Shown: positions 3,155 through 62,040, counted from the first letter of the stretch. The stretch is DNA of 64,000 nucleotides from Candidatus Omnitrophota bacterium (GCA_028717245.1 JAQUOD010000009.1:228-64227), one strand, 5' to 3'. The notes: generated by a model not told the origin, from the letters alone. Numbers and translations: made by a program.

Positions 3155-3315
3155 TTAGCGGGTGGCTTGGGTGTTTTCGAACAGCATCTTGAAGATGCGA
3201 GCGGCCAGGGTTCACCCGCTAATACGAAGTTAGTGAGAGCGAGCAGAAACTTCAAGCGATCCGCCGTAGGCGGAGAGCGGTGCTGGGAGAAAATACCCAA
3301 GACAGGACCCGCTAA
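3155..3315 (+). repeat. palindromic repeated element, family A copy 1 (TTAGCGGGTGG...GACAGGACCCGCTAA)
   Basis: near-identical to the reverse-strand copy at 19455-19690 and shares termini with 19741-19910, 21680-21750 and 30283-30427. Confidence 0.8.
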
Positions 3316-3386
3316 TAGTTTAATCTATATCCCGAGTTGGTTTTACTTGGGATTTTTATTTTAAGGCAGTATAATTTTTTTAAAAT

Positions 3387-13887: not shown

Positions 13888-13917
13888 ATGCCCCGCCCCT
13901 TGCTTTCGGCGGGGCAT
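13888..13917 (+). terminator. GC-rich hairpin ATGCCCCGCC...GGCGGGGCAT after acpP
   Basis: 10-bp stem; weak U-tract. Confidence 0.4.
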
Positions 13918-13920
13918 TTA

Positions 13921-14012
13921 TACGTTCGCGGCCAAAAAACCGCGCCATTCATGGCGCGGATGAACAATTGAGCCGCTTCAGTATTCCGCCCAATGAACCT
14001 CGGGCTTAAGAC
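13921..14012 (+). repeat. repeated element family C copy 1 (CGCGGCCAAAAAACCGCGCCATTCATGGCGCGG...)
   Basis: similar to 50610-50708 and the reverse-strand copy at 55280-55385. Confidence 0.7.
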
Positions 14013-14039
14013 CGGGTGGGCTCCATTATCGTTAAACTT

Positions 14040-15284
14040 ATGCCAGAAAATAGAGTAGTCATTACAGGTATGGGGATAATTTCTCCGGTGGGTAATAGTG
14101 TCCCGGATTTTTGGGGGGCCGTGAAGACCGGAAAGAGCGGTGTAGGTATGCTTACGTCTTTTGATGCTACCGGCTTTGATTCGCGTATCGCCGCTGAAGT
14201 CAAGGGTTTTGACTCGGCCTTATACGGTATATCTGCTAAAGACTCAAGGCGCATGGAGAAGTTTGTGCAATACGCTATTGCTTGCGGCCATCAAGCCCTG
14301 CATGATTCCGGTATGGACTTGAATAAAGAAGACCGGCATAGAATGGGCGTTTTAATCGGCTCAGGCATAGGCGGTTTATACACCATAGAAGAGCAGCATA
14401 AGATTTATATGAATAAGGGGCCTTCCCGTTTGTCTCCGTTTCTTATACCGATGTTAATTGTTAATGAGGCCGCAGGACAGGTGGCCATCAGTTTTGGGTT
14501 AAAGGGCCCGAATTCCTGCGTGGCTACTGCCTGCGCTTCGGGAGCGCATGCCATAGGTGATGCCTACCGGATTATTCAGCGCCAAGATGCGGACGTAATG
14601 GTTTGCGGTGGGTCAGAGAGTTGCATCGTGCCTACGGGCGTAGGCGGTTTTTGTGCCTTGAGGGCGCTTTCTACCAGGAATGATGAACCAGAGAGGGCCA
14701 GCCGTCCTTTTGACTTAGAGCGCGACGGTTTTGTTATGGCTGAAGGTTGCGGCCTGGTAGTCTTGGAAAATTTAGAACACGCCAGGAAGAGAAAAGCCCA
14801 TATATATGCAGAGTTCTGCGGTTATGGCATGTCTTGTGACGCGTACCATATTACCGCGCCTGACCCCGATGGAGAGGGCGCTGCCCAGGCAATAAATATG
14901 GCGTTAAAAGACGCCAAACTTTCTCCGCAGGAGGTAAATTACATTAATGCGCACGGGACATCTACCAAGCTTAATGATAAAATCGAGACGCTGGCAATAA
15001 AGAAGGCCTTAGGCAGTTATGCCAAAAAGGTCATGGTTTCTTCTACTAAATCCATGACCGGGCATTTATTGGGAGCATCCGGCGGAGTAGAATTTGTGGT
15101 TTGCGTTTTAGCGATAAAAGATGGCGTGATACCCCCCACCATAAATTATGAACATCCTGACCCCGAATGTGACCTGGATTACGTGCCTAATACTGCCCGC
15201 GAAATAAAGGTTGAAGCCTGCCTTTCTAATTCGCTGGGTTTTGGCGGGCACAATGCTACGCTTGTAGTAAAAAGATTTAGATAA
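14040..15284 (+). CDS. fabF: 3-oxoacyl-ACP synthase II
   Basis: RVVITGMGI N-terminus, active-site Cys in ATACASG, HGTST, GHLLGASG; start chosen downstream of element C. Confidence 0.9.
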   Translation: MPENRVVITGMGIISPVGNSVPDFWGAVKTGKSGVGMLTSFDATGFDSRIAAEVKGFDSALYGISAKDSRRMEKFVQYAIACGHQALHDSGMDLNKEDRHRMGVLIGSGIGGLYTIEEQHKIYMNKGPSRLSPFLIPMLIVNEAAGQVAISFGLKGPNSCVATACASGAHAIGDAYRIIQRQDADVMVCGGSESCIVPTGVGGFCALRALSTRNDEPERASRPFDLERDGFVMAEGCGLVVLENLEHARKRKAHIYAEFCGYGMSCDAYHITAPDPDGEGAAQAINMALKDAKLSPQEVNYINAHGTSTKLNDKIETLAIKKALGSYAKKVMVSSTKSMTGHLLGASGGVEFVVCVLAIKDGVIPPTINYEHPDPECDLDYVPNTAREIKVEACLSNSLGFGGHNATLVVKRFR

Positions 15285-19454: not shown

Positions 19455-19690
19455 TTCTCGCTTGTAAGGTAGTGGGGCCTGTCAAGGCTATTTTCTCACA
19501 GCACCGCTCGATTTTCCCCACCGAGGAAAATCTCGTCCTTCGGCAAGCTCAGGACGAGCCCTGAGCGAAGTCGAATGGGCTCGCTTGAAGTTTCTGCTCG
19601 CTCTCACTGACTACGTATTAGCGGGTGAGCCCTGGCCGCTCGCATAAACTACATGCTGTTCGAAAACAGCCTTGCCACCCACTAAACCCT
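19455..19690 (-). repeat. family A element copy 2 (reverse orientation, full length)
   Basis: reverse complement aligns with 3155-3315 over its whole length. Confidence 0.8.
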
Positions 19691-19740: not shown

Positions 19741-19910
19741 TTAGCGGGTGACGAGGCATGTTTTGAGCAGCATCTTGAAAATTCGAGCGGGCACGGTTCG
19801 TTTCGTCATTTAGTTGTTTCCGAGAGCGAGAATTTTCACCGAAGTGCAGCGAGCCACGCTGGGGCGAGCAAACGGTGCAGCGAAAAATATGCCTCGGCAG
19901 GACCCGCTAA
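19741..19910 (+). repeat. family A element copy 3
   Basis: termini TTAGCGGGTGACGAGGCAT...ATGCCTCGGCAGGACCCGCTAA with compensatory stem changes. Confidence 0.8.
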
Positions 19911-19930
19911 AAGAGTTATCTATATAATAT

Positions 19931-33404: not shown

Positions 33405-33500
33405 TTTTTCGCACCAGGTGCAAATCCAATCGGGCACCTGGTGCGGAATTGAGATTGTACCTGTCCCGTTATTAGCTTTACACCAGGTGCAAGATGGAGG
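33405..33500 (+). repeat. repeated element family E copy 1 (CGCACCAGGTGCAAATCCAATCGGGCACCTGGTGCG hairpin + GAGATTGTACCTGTCCC)
   Basis: matches 61867-61925. Confidence 0.8.
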
Positions 33501-50585: not shown

Positions 50586-52235
50586 ATGAAAAAAAACAGA
50601 TTATTTTTATACATTCGCGGCAACAAAACCGCGCCATTTATGGCGTGGATGGAGTTTGGCCGCTCAGTATTTCGCTCCAGGAAATCGCGGGCTTTAGTTC
50701 GCGGAGCTTCATTTTTCCTTATTTTTTATTTATTGTCTATAGAATCAAGCGCTACCCAGGAAGTTGCCGATAAAGGAGGCATAGCTTCCGCTGCCGGCGT
50801 AACCATATCCATGGATTTTCAGGACGCCAGCCTCAAGGACATATTAAAAATACTTTCTATCCAGTCAGGCCTGAATTTCATTGCTTCCGAGGCAGTGCAA
50901 GACAGAAAAATAACCTTGTTTTTAGATAAAGTGCCGCTTGAGGGGGTAATGGATAAGTTATTTACGGCAAATAATCTTTCTTACGAGCTGGACAACAAAT
51001 CAAATATATTTTTGGTAAAAGACTGGGGCAAGCCCCAGACTGAAACCATTACTAAGGTGTTTTACCTTAAATATGCTACGGTTTCCTCCTCTTCCTTAAA
51101 AGCAGAGATGTCCGATCAGATAGGCAGCAGCAGTTCATCCGGAGGCACAAGTAGTAGCAGCGGCAGTAGTTCAAGCGGAGGGAGCAGTTCCAGTAGCGAT
51201 GGCAAATGGGCAGTAGAAGAGGATGTAGGTATTACTAAGGCGGTAAAAAAGAACCTTTCAGAGAGCGGTTATGTAGTAGAAGATTACCGTACAAATAGTC
51301 TTATTGTTACTGATCTGCCTAGCCGTATACCGGTTATTGATAAAGTCATTGCCTCTTTGGATGTGCCTATACCTCAGGTGATGCTTGAGGTAGAGATGCT
51401 GGATGTGAGTAAAGCTAGTACCGAGAAGTTAGGGCTTAAATTCGGCCAGACGCCTTTGACCTTTGTATTAACCGGCGCTAAGCGAAGCACGGATTTTCCC
51501 TTCAGCTCTACTGTCCTGCCATACGCGGCAGCAAAACAAATGACACCCGGCAGTATGAGTTTTGCTACCGCATATCAAGTGACCTTAGATTTTTTAAAAA
51601 CCCAGACTGATACAAAATTTTTAGCCCGGCCGCGCTTATTGACTTTAAATAATGAAACCGCAGAGATAAAGATTACCACCCAGGAGGCAGTAGGAGAAAT
51701 ACTAACTGTTTCCGGAGAGAGCGGTAATCTGAGCACTACTACTGAAGCAGAAAGATATGAGACCGGTGTTTCTCTGCGGGTTACCCCGCAGATTAATCTA
51801 GAAACCGGAGAGATAACTATGTTTATCGTACCGGCAGTAGCCGAGGCAACTGCCAGCGGTATTACCAGCAGTTCGGGCGTCAAATTTTATAATCCTGAAA
51901 CCAGGACTACCAAATCCATTGTCTGCGTCAAAGATAATGAAACAGTAGTGTTAGGAGGGTTAATACGCAATAAAAGAACCCAGACCATTACCAAATTACC
52001 CTTTTTGGGCGATCTGCCTTTCATCGGGAAATTATTTACCCATAAAGACGTAGACCCGGGCCAGGAACGCGAATTGCTGGTGTTTATTACTCCGCATATA
52101 GTAAAAGATACAAGCATAGAATTTGCCAGCGTAAAAAAAATAGAGCCTCTTAATCTTAAGCGGGAACAAAGCATTGGTTCCGCACTCAACCGTCAGATGA
52201 CCATAGATTCAAGCCTGAATAGCCTGGAAAAATAA
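50586..52235 (+). CDS. pilQ: type IV pilus secretin PilQ (with Ser/Gly-rich linker and element C inserted in the N-terminal coding region)
   Basis: C-terminal secretin motif VVLGGLIRNKRTQTITKLPFLGDLPFIGKLF; GGAGG SD at 50572; alternative in-frame ATG at 50640. Confidence 0.8.
   Translation: MKKNRLFLYIRGNKTAPFMAWMEFGRSVFRSRKSRALVRGASFFLIFYLLSIESSATQEVADKGGIASAAGVTISMDFQDASLKDILKILSIQSGLNFIASEAVQDRKITLFLDKVPLEGVMDKLFTANNLSYELDNKSNIFLVKDWGKPQTETITKVFYLKYATVSSSSLKAEMSDQIGSSSSSGGTSSSSGSSSSGGSSSSSDGKWAVEEDVGITKAVKKNLSESGYVVEDYRTNSLIVTDLPSRIPVIDKVIASLDVPIPQVMLEVEMLDVSKASTEKLGLKFGQTPLTFVLTGAKRSTDFPFSSTVLPYAAAKQMTPGSMSFATAYQVTLDFLKTQTDTKFLARPRLLTLNNETAEIKITTQEAVGEILTVSGESGNLSTTTEAERYETGVSLRVTPQINLETGEITMFIVPAVAEATASGITSSSGVKFYNPETRTTKSIVCVKDNETVVLGGLIRNKRTQTITKLPFLGDLPFIGKLFTHKDVDPGQERELLVFITPHIVKDTSIEFASVKKIEPLNLKREQSIGSALNRQMTIDSSLNSLEK
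50610..50708 (+). repeat. repeated element family C copy 2, in-frame inside the pilQ 5' coding region
   Basis: ~95% identical to the reverse complement of 55280-55385. Confidence 0.85.
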
Positions 52236-52247
52236 TAAGGTAAAATT

Positions 52248-53969
52248 ATGCCTGCCAGAGAAAAATATCTAAGATTAGGCGAGCTCCTCCTTAAAGAGGG
52301 CATTATCACCGAGGCGCAATTAGAAAAGGCCATCACTGTGCAGAGGCAGGAGGGCGGGCGCTTAGGCGAAATTTTAGTGAAGTTAGGCATACTCAAAGAA
52401 GACCAGACCGTCGCCATCTTAAGCAAGCAGCTGAATATCCCCTATTATGGTATGGGTAGCGACTTAAAACCGACCATGGGAGAGAATTTAGAGCAGCTTA
52501 TCCCTAAAGATTTTGCGCTAAGGAATATGGTGCTTCCTTTATCGCGCACCTTAAGGTCGCTGACCATAGCCATGGCTGACCCCTTGGACCTTATCCTTAT
52601 TGATAACTTAAGAAAACTTACGGATTGCGAAATTAATCCGGTAATTGCCACCAGAACTGATATTACCAAGGGTATTGAGGGTTTTTACGGCAAGTCTAAA
52701 ATGTTTGAGGAAGCAGTAGAGGCCTCTTATGGCGGGGCCAGGGAGATTTCGGAAACCGAAGCAGAAGAAGCTACGGACCAGGAGTTGAGCCTGGATAGGC
52801 TGATTGCCCGCGCAGAAGAAGCGCCGGTAGTCAAGCTCGTAGATTTGATTATCCGCCAGGCCATTGATGAGCGCGCTTCCGATATCCACATAGAACCCTT
52901 TAAGGAAAGGATCTCTTTACGTTACCGTATCGACGGAAAATTATATGAGATCCCGCCGCCGGCCAAGCAGCTGCACTTACCGATTATCTCGCGTATCAAG
53001 ATATTGAGTAAATTAGATATTGCCGAGAAGCGCCTTCCCCAGGACGGGGCATTCTTAGTGAAGTTAGAGGACCGGCCTATAGACATCAGGGTATCTACGG
53101 TCCCTACGATATACGGGGAAAAAATAGTAATGAGATTATTAGATAGAAGCGTTGTGGTTTTAAACCTGGACCAGATGGGTTTTGAGGCCAAGCAATTAGA
53201 ACTCATCCGCCGCGCCATAAATTTGCCTTATGGCCTGGTTTTGATCACCGGCCCCACCGGCAGCGGAAAGACCACCACCTTATACGCTATCTTAAGCGAG
53301 ATAAAAAGCCCGAGCAAGAATATTGTGACCGTTGAGGACCCGGTAGAATACAAATTAGACGGGATTAACCAGGTCCAGGTAAAGCCCGAGATAGGGCTTA
53401 CCTTTGCTAATGCCCTGCGCAGTTTCTTAAGGCAGGACCCGGATATAATGTTAGTGGGCGAGACCCGCGATTTGGAAACCGCCCAGATTTGCATCCGTTC
53501 GGCCTTAACCGGGCATATGGTATTTAGTACCCTGCATACTAATGACGCGCCTTCGGCAATAACCCGGCTTATTGATATCGGCATTGAGCCTTATATGGTC
53601 GCGCCATCGCTTTTAGCAGTATTCGCCCAACGTTTAGTCAGAAAATTATGCCCGGATTGTAAGGAGGCATATGAGCCTACTTTAGAAGCAACCGGAGGCG
53701 TAAAAATCAAGGCGGATTTAATCTATAAGCCCAGGGGTTGCAGTAAATGCGGCCAAATCGGCTATAAAGGCAGGACCTGCGTTTGCGAGGTAATGGTAAT
53801 CAATGAGCAGATCAGGAATTTGATTAGCCAGGCTGCTTCCTTTCAGAAGATCAGGGATGCGGCTAAGGAAGCAGGCATGTTCACCCTTTATGACTCAGCC
53901 ATAAAAAAAATTGAAGACGGAATTACTTCTTTAGAGGAAGGCCTCGCCGTGACCCTGGGGGCAGAATAA
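52248..53969 (+). CDS. pilB: type IV pilus assembly ATPase PilB (GspE family)
   Basis: GSPII_E N-domain, Walker A GPTGSGKTTT, Asp and His boxes, CxxC...CxxC. Confidence 0.9.
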   Translation: MPAREKYLRLGELLLKEGIITEAQLEKAITVQRQEGGRLGEILVKLGILKEDQTVAILSKQLNIPYYGMGSDLKPTMGENLEQLIPKDFALRNMVLPLSRTLRSLTIAMADPLDLILIDNLRKLTDCEINPVIATRTDITKGIEGFYGKSKMFEEAVEASYGGAREISETEAEEATDQELSLDRLIARAEEAPVVKLVDLIIRQAIDERASDIHIEPFKERISLRYRIDGKLYEIPPPAKQLHLPIISRIKILSKLDIAEKRLPQDGAFLVKLEDRPIDIRVSTVPTIYGEKIVMRLLDRSVVVLNLDQMGFEAKQLELIRRAINLPYGLVLITGPTGSGKTTTLYAILSEIKSPSKNIVTVEDPVEYKLDGINQVQVKPEIGLTFANALRSFLRQDPDIMLVGETRDLETAQICIRSALTGHMVFSTLHTNDAPSAITRLIDIGIEPYMVAPSLLAVFAQRLVRKLCPDCKEAYEPTLEATGGVKIKADLIYKPRGCSKCGQIGYKGRTCVCEVMVINEQIRNLISQAASFQKIRDAAKEAGMFTLYDSAIKKIEDGITSLEEGLAVTLGAE

Positions 53970-55207
53970 TGGCAAGGTTTACTTATACGGCCAGAGACAA
54001 TAAAGGTGAACGGCTTAGCGGTTCGGAAGAAGCGGTATCTTTAGATGAACTCACCAGCCGCCTTCAGGCAAAAGGTTTAACAGTAATAAATATAAATATC
54101 CTGCCCGAAGCCAAAGAAGAAAAATCTGCTCTTAAGCCGGAAGCAAAAGAAAAAAAACGCCGGTACCGCCATAGCCGCGTTAGCAGCGATGATTTGGTTA
54201 TTTTTTCCCGGCAATTAGCCGCTCTTTTAGGTTCAGGGGTAACGATTCTAAAGAGCATAGATATCATTTCTAAACAGGTATACAGCCGTAAATTATATAA
54301 TACGCTTAAAGAAATAGAAGGCAATTTAGAAGGAGGCTTAAGTTTTCACGAAGCCATAGCCAAACAATCGGACGTATTTGCCGATTTATGGGTTAATCTG
54401 GCAGAAAGCGGTGAAGCCAGCGGAAACTTAGCCGTAGTTTTAGGCCGTTTAGCTACTTATTTGGAGGTAAGGGCTGCCTTTAAGAAGAAGATTGTCTCTG
54501 CTTTGGTTTATCCGGTTATCCTGATGTTTGCCGGAATCGGCGCGTTGCTTTTTTTGACCTTAAAAATCATCCCTACCTTTGCCGAATTGTTCAAGTCCTT
54601 TAATGTCACCCTGCCCACGCTCACCAGGATAATTATCTCCTTTAGCAACTTTCTTCAGAAATATTTTCTGGTTATTATAGGTATCATTGTTGTGTTTTCT
54701 TTTATATTCAAAAGGTATATCAAGACCAAAGAAGGGAGAAGGAACTTTGAACGGTTCCAATTGAGTTTGCCGGTGTTTGGCGAGTTTTTCCGCGCCCTTA
54801 TCGTAGAGAGGTTTTCTTCGGAGATGTCCACCCTGATTGAAAGCGGGGTGCCCCTCTTGTATTCGCTGGAGATCACCGAACACAGCGTAAGCAGTTTAAC
54901 CATGGAAGAAATCGTGCGCCAGATAAAAGAGGATGTGCGTGAAGGCAAACCCTTAAACAGCAGTTTAGATAAGAGCGGTTTTTTTGAGCCGATGGTCATC
55001 CAGATGGTCGCTATCGGGGAGGAAATCGGGGAATTGCCCCAGATGTTCAAGCGTATTAATACCTTTTATATGGAATACACCGAGACCTTTTTGACCCGCT
55101 TTACCGCGATGTTTGAGCCGCTGATGTTGATATTTATGGGCGGGGTAATCGGGCTGATGGTCGCCGGGATATTTTTGCCCATATTCCAGCTCACCCAGAT
55201 GAGATAG
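53969..55207 (+). CDS. pilC: type IV pilus platform protein PilC (GspF family)
   Basis: duplicated T2SS_F domains, three TM regions. Confidence 0.85.
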   Translation: MARFTYTARDNKGERLSGSEEAVSLDELTSRLQAKGLTVININILPEAKEEKSALKPEAKEKKRRYRHSRVSSDDLVIFSRQLAALLGSGVTILKSIDIISKQVYSRKLYNTLKEIEGNLEGGLSFHEAIAKQSDVFADLWVNLAESGEASGNLAVVLGRLATYLEVRAAFKKKIVSALVYPVILMFAGIGALLFLTLKIIPTFAELFKSFNVTLPTLTRIIISFSNFLQKYFLVIIGIIVVFSFIFKRYIKTKEGRRNFERFQLSLPVFGEFFRALIVERFSSEMSTLIESGVPLLYSLEITEHSVSSLTMEEIVRQIKEDVREGKPLNSSLDKSGFFEPMVIQMVAIGEEIGELPQMFKRINTFYMEYTETFLTRFTAMFEPLMLIFMGGVIGLMVAGIFLPIFQLTQMR

Positions 55208-55218
55208 GAAAGAAATCA

Positions 55219-55247
55219 TTGACATCGGATTAAATTATTGATAAAAT
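55219..55247 (+). promoter_or_regulatory. candidate sigma70 promoter TTGACA-17-TAAAAT upstream of the pilin array
   Basis: consensus -35 and near-consensus -10 with 17-nt spacer. Confidence 0.4.
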
Positions 55248-55279
55248 TAAAAAACATAAAGGAGGTGGGATAAAAAAAT

Positions 55280-55385
55280 GAAGCTCCACGAGCTAAAGCC
55301 CGCGGTTTCCTGGAGCGAAATACTGAGCGGCCAAACTCCATCCGCGCCATAAATGGCGCGGTTTTGTGGCCGCGAATGTATAAAG
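55280..55385 (-). repeat. repeated element family C copy 3 (inverted relative to copy 2)
   Basis: with copy 2 it brackets pilQ-pilB-pilC. Confidence 0.85.
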
Positions 55386-55457
55386 ATAAGCAGGTAGCAG
55401 GCACCTAAAACAAAGAAATTAATATTTAGTTAAGTTTATTATACAAGGAGGCTCAAG

Positions 55458-57274: not shown

Positions 57275-57676
57275 ATGAAGAAAGGTTTTACGCTCTTAGA
57301 GTTAATCGTAGTGATCATTATCATCGGTATTTTGGCTACTTTAGGCATTACCCAGTATGCTTCCACTGTTGAAAGAAGCCGCGTTGCCGAAGCCAAGGCT
57401 AATTTGGGGTCGTTACGTACCCTACAGCTTGCTTATTTTCAGGATAAAGATGAGTATGCTTCAGTAGCTAATTTGGAAGCAAATCTGCCTACTGATACTT
57501 GCACTAGCCAGTACTATTTTAAGTATAGTTGCGACGCTGGGGGGAATGGAACTGGAGAGTGTACTGCTACCAGATGTGGATCTGCCGAGAATGGCAAATC
57601 TCCAGGCTATACAGGGAACGCATATAATATCAGACTCGAGATAAATGGCGAATGGAACAGTGATGCGGGCTGGTAG
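57275..57676 (+). CDS. type IV pilin (divergent fifth pilin)
   Basis: MKKGF|TLLELIVV leader; GGAGG SD; four Cys. Confidence 0.8.
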   Translation: MKKGFTLLELIVVIIIIGILATLGITQYASTVERSRVAEAKANLGSLRTLQLAYFQDKDEYASVANLEANLPTDTCTSQYYFKYSCDAGGNGTGECTATRCGSAENGKSPGYTGNAYNIRLEINGEWNSDAGW

Positions 57677-60377: not shown

Positions 60378-61866
60378 AGCCACAAGTTGCAAGGCAAGAT
60401 TCCTAAAAATCATCTTGTTTCTTCTTTTTACTTACAGCTTACAGCTTACAGCTTACAGCTTATATGCTGATGATATCCAGGAACCCAATGCCGCAGGCAC
60501 TTTCTACCCGGACGACCCGCAGCAGTTATCCCAAATGATTGACGAATTTTTGAATCAGGCAAACCCAGAGGCAGTGCAGGGCGATATATTCGCTTTGATT
60601 TCCCCGCATGCGGGTTATGGTTTTTCAGGGGGAGTAGCTGCCTTTGGCTATAAGCTGATCAAAGATAAGCCATATAAGACGGTGATTATTATCGGACCCA
60701 GCCACCAGTATGGTTTTCAAGGCGTATCCGTGTATCCAAAAGGAATATTCCGCAGCCCCTTAGGAGATTTAGAGATAGATACGGAATTTACCAAGAATTT
60801 GCTTTATCAGGAGAATAATATCTTTTTTGAGCCGGCAGCTTTTGAAAAAGAACACTCAATAGAAGTACAGCTGCCCTTTTTGCAAAAAGTTCTTTCTAAT
60901 TTCAAAATCGTGCCCATTGTGATGGGGGATTGCAGTTTTTCTACCTGCCAAAAATTAGCAGGTTTACTGAAAGAGGCGATAGGCAGTCGCAGGGATGTTT
61001 TGGTAGTTGCTTCCACGGATATGTATCACGGTTATGATTATGCAGAGGCAGGGGTAGTTGACAATTTGACCCTTAGTTATCTTGAGGATATGGATGCCCG
61101 GGGTTTATATGATGGATTAAGAGAAGGCAAACTACAGCTTTGCGGAGGGTTTGGGGTTGTCTCTACCTTAATTTTAGCCAAAGAATTAGGCCACAATAAA
61201 TTGAAAGTATTAAAATATACGGATTCCAGCATAGTAACAGGAAAGAAGGCCAAGGGGGCCTGGACCGTAGGTTATGCCAGTTGTGTTATCGATCAGGAAA
61301 AGGGGGAGTTAAATATGTTAAATAAAGAGCAGAGAAAAAAGCTATTGGGTATTGCGCGTAAATCCATAGAGGCGTATTTAAAAGGCGGAAAAAAACTGCA
61401 ACTTAATGAAACAGATCCCGTATTGTTAAAAGAGATAGGCGCCTTTGTGACCTTGCATGAACGCGCTCAATTACGCGGCTGTATCGGAAATATAATAGGG
61501 CGGGGCCCCCTGTATCTTACCATTAGGGATATGGCTGTTGAGGCAGCGACAGGAGATCCGCGTTTTCAGCCTATGAAACCTGATGAACTCAAGGATGTTG
61601 AAATAGAGATATCCGTGCTTTCTCCTTTAAAAAGAATAACCTCCATAGATGAAATTCAATTAGGTACCCATGGTGTTTTGATCAGGAGGGATTTTGCCAG
61701 CGGCATATTCCTGCCTCAGGTAGCCACGGAGACCGGCTGGCCCAAAGAAGAATTCCTCTCTAATCTCTGCAGCCATAAAGCAGGATTGGAGCCGGATGCC
61801 TGGAAGGATAAGGCCACGGAAATTTATATTTTTAGCGCCGAAGTATTTTCTGAAAAAGATTTTTAG
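60328..61866 (+). CDS. fused MEMO1-family (AmrB-like) and AMMECR1-family (AmrA-like) protein with N-terminal signal-peptide-like segment
   Basis: AAGTFYPDDP MEMO1 N-terminus; C-terminal AMMECR1 motifs GAFVTLHE...LRGCIG; overlaps the AmrS gene by 50 nt. Confidence 0.75.
   Translation: MGNVNSVEKKLRVSGSRATSCKARFLKIILFLLFTYSLQLTAYSLYADDIQEPNAAGTFYPDDPQQLSQMIDEFLNQANPEAVQGDIFALISPHAGYGFSGGVAAFGYKLIKDKPYKTVIIIGPSHQYGFQGVSVYPKGIFRSPLGDLEIDTEFTKNLLYQENNIFFEPAAFEKEHSIEVQLPFLQKVLSNFKIVPIVMGDCSFSTCQKLAGLLKEAIGSRRDVLVVASTDMYHGYDYAEAGVVDNLTLSYLEDMDARGLYDGLREGKLQLCGGFGVVSTLILAKELGHNKLKVLKYTDSSIVTGKKAKGAWTVGYASCVIDQEKGELNMLNKEQRKKLLGIARKSIEAYLKGGKKLQLNETDPVLLKEIGAFVTLHERAQLRGCIGNIIGRGPLYLTIRDMAVEAATGDPRFQPMKPDELKDVEIEISVLSPLKRITSIDEIQLGTHGVLIRRDFASGIFLPQVATETGWPKEEFLSNLCSHKAGLEPDAWKDKATEIYIFSAEVFSEKDF
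60431..60466 (+). repeat. in-frame heptamer repeat (TTACAGC)x5 in the N-terminal hydrophobic segment of the MEMO1-AMMECR1 fusion
   Basis: encodes TYSLQLTAYSLYA. Confidence 0.9.
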
Positions 61867-62040
61867 CACCAGGTGCGAATTCAATCGGGCACCAGGTGCG
61901 AATTTGAGATTGTACCTGTCCCTTTTAATTAAAGATAATCAGGGGACAGGTACAAGATTAGATTCAGAAACGGTACAAGATTAACTTTGCACCCGGTACA
62001 AGATTAGATTGGCACCCGGTGCGAAATAGGCATTACTAAA
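61867..62040 (+). repeat. family E element copy 2, extended into a ~170-nt palindrome (...GTACCTGTCCC / GGGACAGGTAC...)
   Basis: left arm matches 33405-33465. Confidence 0.8.

Follow-up and report, generated by a model that had tools for sequence, protein, structure and literature searches.

Family C, a repeat of 102-105 nt that holds no gene, is very likely a non-autonomous derivative of IS605-type elements (IS200/IS605 family), that is, a PATE, and one of its copies is read in frame inside the signal peptide of the secretin PilQ. We base this reading on its left end, whose homologues are the left ends of IS605-type elements encoding a Y1 transposase. Family C is therefore a known kind of selfish DNA, and not a demonstrated genetic switch.

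A preliminary description of the window (the whole 64-kb stretch of DNA that was analysed) placed three copies in it, and all three are present, at 13917-14026 (+), 50606-50712 (+) and 55278-55384 (-) when a flanking TTTAT is included. The copies and their immediate flanks are as follows.

13922-14026, plus strand: copy 1, element proper, of the subfamily ending in GGGCTCCAT; it follows a TTTAT at 13917-13921
50606-50610, plus strand: TTTAT to the left of copy 2, the host target pentanucleotide, in codons ..TTT TTA T
50611-50712, plus strand: copy 2, element proper, 102 nt or 34 codons, in frame inside the pilQ signal peptide
55278-55379, minus strand: copy 3, element proper, in the pilC-pilin spacer, antisense to the pil genes
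55380-55384, minus strand: TTTAT target of copy 3
55216-55404, minus strand: 62-aa open reading frame, consisting only of the open frame of copy 3 and its flanks; not a gene, and without a Pfam match

Copies 2 and 3, described earlier as ~95% identical inverted repeats, differ at 5 of 107 positions (95.3% identity), and a repeat search of the window gave a 116-nt inverted pair at 95% with arms separated by 4557 nt. The third copy had been placed 5' of fabF; it stops 14 nt before the fabF ATG at 14041, and its TTTAT is the tail of the acpP terminator, so that copy 1 begins directly after that hairpin. A 32-nt degenerate core matched exactly these three sites (0.00 matches expected, from 100 shuffles), and a covariance model scan of the window found no sense copy beyond them. 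The minus-strand frame at 55216-55404 does yield, as had been noticed, a peptide nearly the same as the one that copy 2 inserts into PilQ.

The family extends well beyond this locus. The core pattern turned up at 30 genomic and 14 metagenomic loci, most of them in Omnitrophota MAGs, a single MAG having more than 20 copies, and covariance modelling of the fetched loci recovered ~40 distinct sense copies. Viral contigs scanned for the core gave no match. The ends of the element are sharp, ACAT(T/G)CGCGG.. on the left and ..GGAGCTTCAT on the right. A search for terminal inverted repeats found none, the ends sharing only the CGCGG of two separate hairpins. On the left, TTTAT flanks 34-36 of 36 copies (for the last four bases, 34 of 37 copies have TTAT, 2 have TCAT and 1 has CTAT), and the right end reads ..TCAT in 37 of 37. 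A flank logo of 36-37 copies showed no target-site duplication; the sequence to the right varies, and apart from the TTTAT on the left the flanks are unrelated to one another. Likewise, the net insert in pilQ is 102 nt, and no duplicated base is needed to account for it. We rejected TTTAT as part of the element, which would make it 107 nt, since 107 is not a multiple of 3 and the transposase-bearing relatives have TTTAT outside their left ends. Four copies that diverge after the 5' half (L021, L030, L002 and L001) were also rejected as full-length autonomous copies; they are truncated, or have insertions in the right hairpin, and lie beside ordinary genes. An uninterrupted version of the palindrome that hosts the copy at L006 was sought and not found.

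The left end of family C is homologous to the left ends of three IS605-type elements (L018, L050 and L052), each of which is also preceded by TTTAT. In L018 the core (1693-1718) lies 12 nt from the stop codon of a decayed Y1_Tnp gene (Pfam 4e-11 and 2e-7) and abuts a truncated HD-GYP gene at TTTAT/CAT; by our estimate, chance would supply ~0.004 matches to the 24 fixed bases in 596 Gb. The tnpA gene is intact in both L050 and L052, and tnpB is complete in L052 and truncated by the end of the contig in L050. Both left ends begin TTTAT/CAC, with a hairpin 16-18 nt in. The right end of L052 consists of GAAT, a hairpin and ...TCAA/, to which the right end of family C bears a modest and partial likeness. 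The sources of these relatives were a MAG with the label Gammaproteobacteria and metagenome contigs that have no label. Searches by tblastn, using IS608 and IS200 TnpA sequences and then the TnpA and TnpB of L052, found neither tnpA nor tnpB, whether in the 64-kb window or across ~370 kb of loci from Omnitrophota.

Each element carries two similar hairpins with an 8-bp stem and a TTTA loop, one placed 18 nt in from the left end and the other 8 nt in from the right. In copy 2 these and the putative guides are placed as follows.

50625-50628, plus strand: left guide AAAA; the foot of the left hairpin is 18 nt from the left cleavage point
50629-50648, plus strand: left hairpin, CCGCGCCA-TTTA-TGGCGTGG
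50681-50684, plus strand: right guide GAAA
50685-50704, plus strand: right hairpin
50709-50712, plus strand: right end AGCTTCAT with the predicted cleavage site TCAT

The alignment of the family supports this structure. Across the copies 96.8% of cells are paired, as against 28-49% when partners are slid, and 13 pairs change on both sides, a number reached by 0 of 500 shuffles. There are 24 G.U pairs versus 7 A.C pairs, which identifies one strand as the folded strand. Helices outside the two hairpins covary too, the extra helices enclosing the left hairpin, and some copies have further hairpins inserted in their loops.

In IS608 the spacing between hairpin foot and cleavage site is 19 nt on the left and 10 nt on the right, the left guide AAAG goes with the cleavage site TTAC and the right guide GAAT with TCAA, and A+16:T-3 and A+17:T-4 also pair (PMC3201880, PMC5934647). 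We tested the corresponding rule (G1:C2, G2:C1 and G4:C4) on family C, taking as guide the tetranucleotide 5' of each hairpin. The left guide AAAA occurs with TTAT in 34 of 37 copies and the right guide GAAA with TCAT in 24. Both combinations characterise the main subfamily, which includes copies 2 and 3 of the window, and they satisfy all guide/cleavage pairing positions under the IS608 rule. In the subfamily of copy 1 the right guide fits only in the aligned register (GGAA with CCAT); it becomes GAAC when the strictly paired hairpin foot is used, leaving the register ambiguous. Apparent covariation of right guide and cleavage site between the subfamilies was discounted as strong evidence, since it amounts to about one evolutionary event and depends on the register.

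Copy 2 lies in the first of three pil genes bracketed by the inverted pair.

50586-52235, plus strand: pilQ, secretin (STN, Secretin_N and Secretin domains), 549 aa, intact, with the insert as residues 9-42
52248-53969, plus strand: pilB, in the bracketed segment
53969-55207, plus strand: pilC, in the bracketed segment

The strong Shine-Dalgarno element ascribed to pilQ is there (GGAGG, 8 nt before the ATG at 50586), and copy 2 is indeed read through in frame; the length first given for the insert, ~33 residues, needs correcting to 34 (YIRGNKTAPFMAWMEFGRSVFRSRKSRALVRGAS). As had been proposed, these residues lie inside the signal peptide, the 34 codons falling exactly between the n- and h-regions. 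They lengthen the n-region and add a net charge of +7, and leave the h-region FFLIFYLLSI and the c-region ESSA intact. Deleting the insert in silico gave an open 515-aa pilQ starting MKKNRLFLFFLIFYLLSIESSATQE, with a 22-aa signal peptide restored (MKKNRLFLFFLIFYLLSIESSA). That the extra peptide comes from the element and not from pilQ ancestry agrees with the leaders of more than 40 orthologous PilQ proteins (at most 70% identity), which are short, of the type MKNNFKLFVFIF...LNA, and free of the insert. The converse case, an insert that is ancestral in the orthologues, was looked at as well; because they are without it, the insert is derived.

We propose that family C retains just a left and a right end, each with its subterminal hairpin, and that a Y1 (HUH) transposase supplied in trans would move it as single-stranded top-strand DNA, inserting it 3' of TTTAT and leaving the target unduplicated. 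Two of the three sense frames of the element proper are open and its length in pilQ is 102 nt, so insertion into a coding TTTAT can be read through. The landing site in pilQ would have been ..TTA TTT TTA T/TT TTC.., at the junction of the basic n-region and the hydrophobic h-region. The 34 mostly basic residues would thus have joined a segment that export presumably removes by cleavage, and for this reason the insertion would be tolerated. Copy 3 would be a sister copy, placed in the opposite orientation at the TTTAT of the pilC-pilin spacer.

PilQ is not alone in carrying the element in its leader. A word-indexed protein search with a 40-aa peptide gave no match, and the protein carriers were found by an exhaustive search of representative proteins. 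At least eight other secreted or membrane proteins have the element in a signal peptide or first transmembrane segment, where it sits between an M-K-rich n-region and the hydrophobic core (P0122, P0125, P0129, P0130, P0131, P0136, L005 and L002). Other in-frame copies lie in a giant ORF (L007), a queE-like gene (L049) and a GHMP kinase gene (P0127); with pilQ, an amidase lipoprotein, a PMT_2 glycosyltransferase and a TolC-like protein, these are unrelated genes that all read the repeat through. In-ORF copies number ~14, and 9 of them are at the n/h junction of a signal peptide or of a first transmembrane segment; only 15% of coding TTTAT sites fall within the first 40 codons (rough P ~4e-5 for the leader excess). 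This habit of sitting in signal peptides is unusual. A second repeat, unrelated to family C, sits likewise in related pilQ genes. At least two unrelated families thus occupy the n/h junction in Omnitrophota, in pilQ and in other exported proteins. It is conceivable, if rather unlikely, that this junction is a preferred home of small mobile repeats and that more than passive tolerance is involved: export might be tuned by the basic peptide, and leaders, that of PilQ among others, might vary reversibly in length if TnpA excises the element scar-free, as the chemistry of IS200/IS605 elements permits.

Strong covariation, the preference for G.U pairs on one strand and the extra hairpins in the loops of some copies would also suit a family that acts mainly as structured RNA (a small RNA present in many copies, or a cis-regulatory leader) and is not mobile DNA. 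The position of several copies, ending 14-35 nt before a co-oriented start codon, points the same way. About one third of the copies, however, are antisense to neighbouring genes, and several lie within ORFs. Rfam gave no relevant match for the window at gathering level or for three copy-bearing loci at E<=1, and an account in terms of RNA leaves unexplained the invariant TTAT beside the element, its guide/cleavage fit and its homology to transposase-bearing elements, which makes this reading highly improbable. An RNA-level role in addition to mobility may nonetheless exist, since helices beyond the two hairpins covary and, by our tally, about two thirds of the copies are co-oriented with neighbouring genes. 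Mobile DNA of another sort, a REP/REPIN-type repeat whose spread depends on a domesticated RAYT (TnpA-REP) and not on an IS transposase, would accord with the lack of an IS partner in the Omnitrophota loci searched, and RAYTs too are Y1 HUH enzymes acting on hairpins with a guide-like tetranucleotide (PMC8266576). We give this very little credence: family C is a 102-nt unit and not an inverted pair of short REPs, its left and right ends are different, asymmetric and in direct order, the target beside it is fixed, and its left end aligns with that of tnpA-tnpB elements.

An insert of 34 aa in a 22-aa signal peptide is drastic, and could have inactivated it, leaving pilQ as an incipient pseudogene or dependent on a restart; the in-frame ATGs at 50640 and 50649 would yield leaders of normal length, and rescue from the former had been suggested. 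The pilQ ORF and every secretin domain are, however, intact, and both ATGs are without a Shine-Dalgarno element and lie inside the 8-bp GC-rich hairpin. The other insert carriers, at least eight and among them two lipoproteins with intact lipoboxes, have Met/Lys upstream of the insert and no Met downstream of it, so that the upstream start must be used there. With its h- and c-regions intact and the same arrangement in these other leaders, PilQ neither needs nor, judging from sequence, gives any indication of rescue by an internal start, and inactivation is quite improbable. The further proposal that the inverted pair serves as a switch, flipping pilQBC to turn piliation off and on, draws on the geometry of the arms (107 nt, 95.3% identical, inverted). 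Copies 2 and 3 are in the same frame, and a simulated inversion therefore keeps a 549-aa pilQ ORF, which begins at GTG 55404, ~35 nt downstream of a minus-strand hexamer resembling TATAAT; moreover, segments enclosed by Correia elements are reviewed as inverting in Neisseria (PMC10969869). Against this, Pfam found no recombinase or transposase domain in any ORF of at least 100 aa in the 64-kb window, the segment comprises three complete core genes and not a promoter or alternative cassettes, and the inverted pilQ would be without a Shine-Dalgarno element and severed from pilMNOP. The present gene order is that of relatives and is the ancestral one (L031), and the PilQ protein cluster, with its one sequence from one contig, contains no alternative allele. 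The repeat belongs to a mobile family with copies genome-wide in both orientations, and an inverted pair a few kb apart is thus expected by chance. A programmed or used switch consequently seems a very remote prospect; RecA-mediated inversion over 107 bp would be a physically feasible but hypothetical event. Most likely the pair reflects two independent insertions, and the bracketing of pilQBC is incidental.

For the type IV pili of an uncultured phylum, phase variation was a tempting but unsupported story, and it is now removed. What replaces it can be tested: a miniature element of IS200/IS605 type whose target, guides and cleavage sites are defined. It offers a clean natural example of a mobile element living inside essential genes and bears on the length of n-region that the Sec machinery tolerates. 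It also matters for the annotation of Omnitrophota genomes, since long odd leaders and spurious small ORFs would otherwise mislead.

Among known systems, in the fim and hin/gin-type switches the repeats are short, a dedicated recombinase is encoded next to them, and what inverts is a promoter or a set of alternative gene ends. The pilQBC locus resembles them in that inverted repeats flank a segment affecting a surface appendage, but has none of these three attributes. Classical MITEs have terminal inverted repeats and target duplications, whereas family C has neither. The target duplication of Correia elements is TA. Correia elements (CREE, Neisseria) and MITEs share with family C their abundance and lack of autonomy; they affect neighbouring genes, and inversions can occur between their copies (PMC10969869). 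REP/REPIN-RAYT systems use short REP units (~20-40 nt) in inverted doublets, together with a single-copy RAYT, whereas the hairpins of family C are in direct order. Rickettsia palindromic elements (RPEs), of ~100-150 bp, lie in frame in unrelated genes and add a conserved peptide (PMC10969869). Family C is similarly a short palindromic repeat read in frame within several unrelated genes; it has no sequence relation to RPEs and occurs in another phylum, its mobilisation chemistry can be assigned, and most of its in-ORF copies are at the n/h junction, a habit that we did not find reported for RPEs. Unlike IS200/IS605 elements, family C is 102-105 nt long and geneless, has extra covarying helices, is often read through in frame, and has no partner transposase seen yet in Omnitrophota. 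TTTAT is itself a reported target, that of the IS605-related group A IStrons (PMC4227781). Family C is like IS200/IS605 elements (IS608, IS605, IS606) and PATEs in lacking terminal inverted repeats and target duplication, in having a subterminal hairpin at each end, in its strand asymmetry (PMC3201880, PMC5934647, PMC3119063) and in its place 3' of a fixed short T-rich sequence, and its guide rule is like that of IS608, with distances of 18 and 8 nt in place of 19 and 10.

Re-inspection of the sequence placed the three copies of family C, a dispersed repeat, where the preliminary description had put them (coordinates include TTTAT):

13917-14026, + strand: copy 1, before fabF
50606-50712, + strand: copy 2, in pilQ (50586-52235)
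55278-55384, - strand: copy 3, in the spacer between pilC and the pilin genes

Copies 2 and 3 had been described as an inverted pair of ~95% identity, and a repeat search recovered them as a 116-nt inverted repeat, 95% complementary, with arms 4557 nt apart; the two differ at five positions over the 107-nt unit. A 32-nt degenerate core had only these three sites in the window (chance expectation 0.00), and a covariance model built on 17 copies likewise found three copies only. In 370 kb of loci from beyond the window, the same model recovered ~40 sense copies that are distinct from one another. In the species-representative genome set, a 24-base core pattern matched 30 loci (>20 in one MAG, the remainder in Omnitrophica/Omnitrophota MAGs), and it also occurred in 14 metagenome contigs. 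Aligned copies start with TTTATAC, end in (T/C)TCAT or CTCCAT, and lie in unrelated flanking DNA; the usual length is 107 nt, counting TTTAT, although in some copies a loop has gained an additional hairpin. By our own counts, with ORFs called mechanically, ~28 copies are co-oriented with neighboring genes and ~13 are antisense, with several lying within ORFs. In locus L006 (409-590), a larger palindrome (CTTCGCACATA ... TATGTGCGAAG) has a family C copy in its loop, so that this copy is nested within some other hairpin element or within a terminator. Copy 1 stops 14 nt short of the fabF ATG (14041), which lacks a Shine-Dalgarno element (14016-14043); an original fabF leader may have been displaced when the copy inserted.

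Judged from its sequence, the mechanism class of family C is most likely that of a PATE, a transposase-less derivative within the IS200/IS605 family (PMC3119063). Unlike all other genome matches to the core, that in locus L018 follows a decayed Y1 transposase gene of IS200 type, whose two fragments both match Pfam Y1_Tnp and whose stop codon is 12 nt from the core hairpin. The core adjoins a truncated HD-GYP gene, and host-gene homology picks up exactly where TTTAT meets CAT. The IS605-type element interrupting this gene (L018 1680-2068) has a decayed tnpA, with profile positions 38-81 missing; the source is a MAG labelled Gammaproteobacteria, and the contig end falls inside the element. The nearest intact homologues of the L018 transposase lie within IS605-type units: L052 has a divergent tnpB and tnpA, whereas the L050 and L051 units are partial. 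Read on the strand antisense to tnpA, the left ends compare as follows:

L050 left end: TTTAT, then CACGCCCCGCGAAAAA and the hairpin
L052 left end: TTTAT, then CACTCTTTGCGCGTAAGA and the hairpin
Family C left end: TTTAT, then ACATTCGCGGCCACAAAA and the hairpin

TTTAT precedes the left end in all three and is therefore the target, lying outside the element; without it, copies 2 and 3 measure 102 nt. Right-end homology to the transposase-bearing elements is weak, and the Omnitrophota sequence searched (the window and related loci) yielded no partner transposase.

The ends also follow the guide rule of IS608, in which the left cleavage site TTAC lies 19 nt 5' of the hairpin foot, the right site TCAA lies 10 nt 3' of it, and the four bases 5' of each hairpin (AAAG left, GAAT right) pair with their site, with A+16:T-3 and A+17:T-4 (PMC3201880, PMC5934647). 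In family C, TTAT goes with AAAA on the left (18 nt, 34/37 copies) and TCAT with GAAA on the right (8 nt, 24 copies including copies 2 and 3), and these combinations satisfy all IS608 pairing positions. The right end of L052 reads GAAT, hairpin, AGGATGTCAA, as in IS608; relative to L052, the fourth base of the family C guide (T to A) and that of its cleavage site (A to T) have changed jointly. For copy 1 and the rest of the subfamily with the ending GGGCTCCAT, GGAA can be matched to CCAT in the aligned register only.

Across 25 distinct copies, 96.8% of cells were paired, versus 28-49% with partners slid 1-3 columns, and 13 pairs showed two-sided changes, a number matched in 0/500 shuffles; the alignment was fitted to the covariance model, which somewhat favors pairing. 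An independent MAFFT/RNAalifold run on 8 copies gave the same helices. The excess of G.U over A.C wobbles (24 versus 7) identifies the folded strand as the one reading TTTAT..TCAT. The left and right hairpins have the same loop and the same five outer base pairs, which would suit recognition of both by a single protein. Such a fold might instead mark an obligate cis-RNA, which is unlikely because the ~13 antisense copies and those inside ORFs speak against it.

At pilQ, the insertion is best understood as a leader extension. Orthologous PilQ proteins (55-70% identity) have ~505-530 aa and leaders such as MKNNFRLFVFIFFLCLFLPRLNA; the window PilQ has 34 residues more, and in-silico deletion of 50611-50712 leaves an open 515-aa pilQ beginning MKKNRLFLFFLIFYLLSIESSA followed by TQE. 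The insert (net charge +7) separates the n-region, MKKNRLFL, from an h-region, FFLIFYLLSI, whose mean Kyte-Doolittle value is 2.67. Rescue from an internal ATG, as once proposed, finds little favor: the internal ATGs lack a Shine-Dalgarno element, and the insert leaves that of the 50586 start unaltered, along with the initial 20 nt of the reading frame. We infer that 50586 is the start in use and that the insert would be removed along with the leader.

The other proposal was that the inverted pair switches pilQBC. The bracketed segment holds pilQ (STN, Secretin_N, Secretin), pilB and pilC, with PilMN, PilO and a PilP-like ORF upstream and four tandem pilins downstream. Homologous recombination across 107 bp could possibly invert it, but that such inversion is used is very unlikely; simulated exchange within the repeats leaves a 62-aa stub at the pilQ start and a 549-aa pilQ on the opposite strand (GTG 55404, no Shine-Dalgarno). 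Two inverted copies separated by 4.6 kb are nothing unusual where a genome has many repeats in both orientations, the order pilMN-O-P-Q-B-C is unchanged in the related locus L031, and a Pfam scan of every window ORF >=100 aa detected no recombinase or transposase, all matches being to housekeeping or pilus functions. Recurring repeat pairs around pil genes probably arise because intergenic spacers are full of repeats. A 73-nt inverted pair of yet another repeat (L031 3677-3749 and 9597-9669, 96% identical) brackets HTH-pilMN-pilO-pilP-pilQ.

Downstream of pilC lie a promoter-like site and a terminator-like copy 3 hairpin, from which the pilin 5' leader may hold an element-derived attenuator. 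These and other features of the window are:

55219-55247 (+): promoter-like TTGACA-17-TAAAAT, close to consensus (11/12), with TG, just past pilC and upstream of antisense copy 3
55342-55361 (+): copy 3 left hairpin plus TTTT, terminator-like score
55458-57233: four tandem 144-aa pilin paralogues, 447-nt period, 77-93% identical
57275-57676: fifth pilin-like gene, 133 aa
58148-59114: further ORFs with N-terminal methylation motif
~12700, 20470, 32373, 42580, 60431 (+); 28888 (inverted): octamer arrays
7873, 16107, 21576, 24867, 26210; 11945, 45007: further octamer arrays
3155-3330, 19578-19685 (inverted), 19741-19925: dispersed ~110-175-nt repeat, 74-88% identical, next to dusB-like and truA-like genes
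33405-33470, 61860-61925: 66-nt repeat, 89% identical, hairpin (GCACCAGGTGC..GCACCTGGTGC)
61943-62027: 23-nt tandem units after the second 66-nt copy

Many intergenic spacers contain the short octamer tandem arrays, of (GCTTACAG)n, AAGTTTRA/AATGTT-like units and (AGTGTCAA)n, immediately 5' of genes.

Another hairpin-rich repeat, unrelated to family C (~110-140 nt; L031 8015-8154 and 4036-4175, L034 3860-3990), lies in frame at the same pilQ codon position as the family C insert in the related genomes L031 and L034, after MNKNFK, with an empty site at L033 298-330. The other L031 copy likewise keeps the reading frame, within the leader of a pilin-like ORF of 164 aa (MFKIRFNK, 37 aa, KGVVLLIVLG).

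Searched exhaustively with the 39-aa family C peptide, a set of 1.84 billion representative proteins gave 13 carriers (64-86% identity); in 6/13 the peptide follows a short start rich in Met and Lys and precedes a hydrophobic core. Among fetched proteins (P) and loci (L):

P0122, P0125, P0131: signal peptides carrying the element peptide
P0130, P0136: lipobox proteins with the element peptide (P0130, Amidase_3 protein)
P0129: PMT_2 glycosyltransferase, element peptide before the first transmembrane helix
L005: TolC-like, element between start and hydrophobic core, other open frame used
L002: element placed as in L005
L007: giant ORF, internal in-frame copy
L049: queE-like, internal in-frame copy
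P0127: GHMP kinase, internal in-frame element peptide
L039: copy adds a C-terminal tail

Of the three sense frames, two are open. Among the copies translated, entry from xTT TAT leads to a TGA stop in the CAZAVF copies and, in copy 2 and L007, to a TAG close to the right hairpin; in the L039/L043/L046 variants this frame is open, and L039 uses it. Only 15% of sense TTTAT sites in window ORFs fall within the first 40 codons, versus 9 N-terminal cases among ~14 in-ORF copies by our tally (rough binomial P ~4e-5, from a small, heterogeneous sample).

A limited literature search found no paper on a mobile repeat concentrated in signal-peptide n-regions and no description of such elements in Omnitrophota, on which a 2026 preprint on complete genomes is silent. 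Family C is an element of a familiar type apart from one peculiarity, its use of signal-peptide n-regions, and its impact on genes is similar to that of the Rickettsia palindromic elements (PMC10969869).
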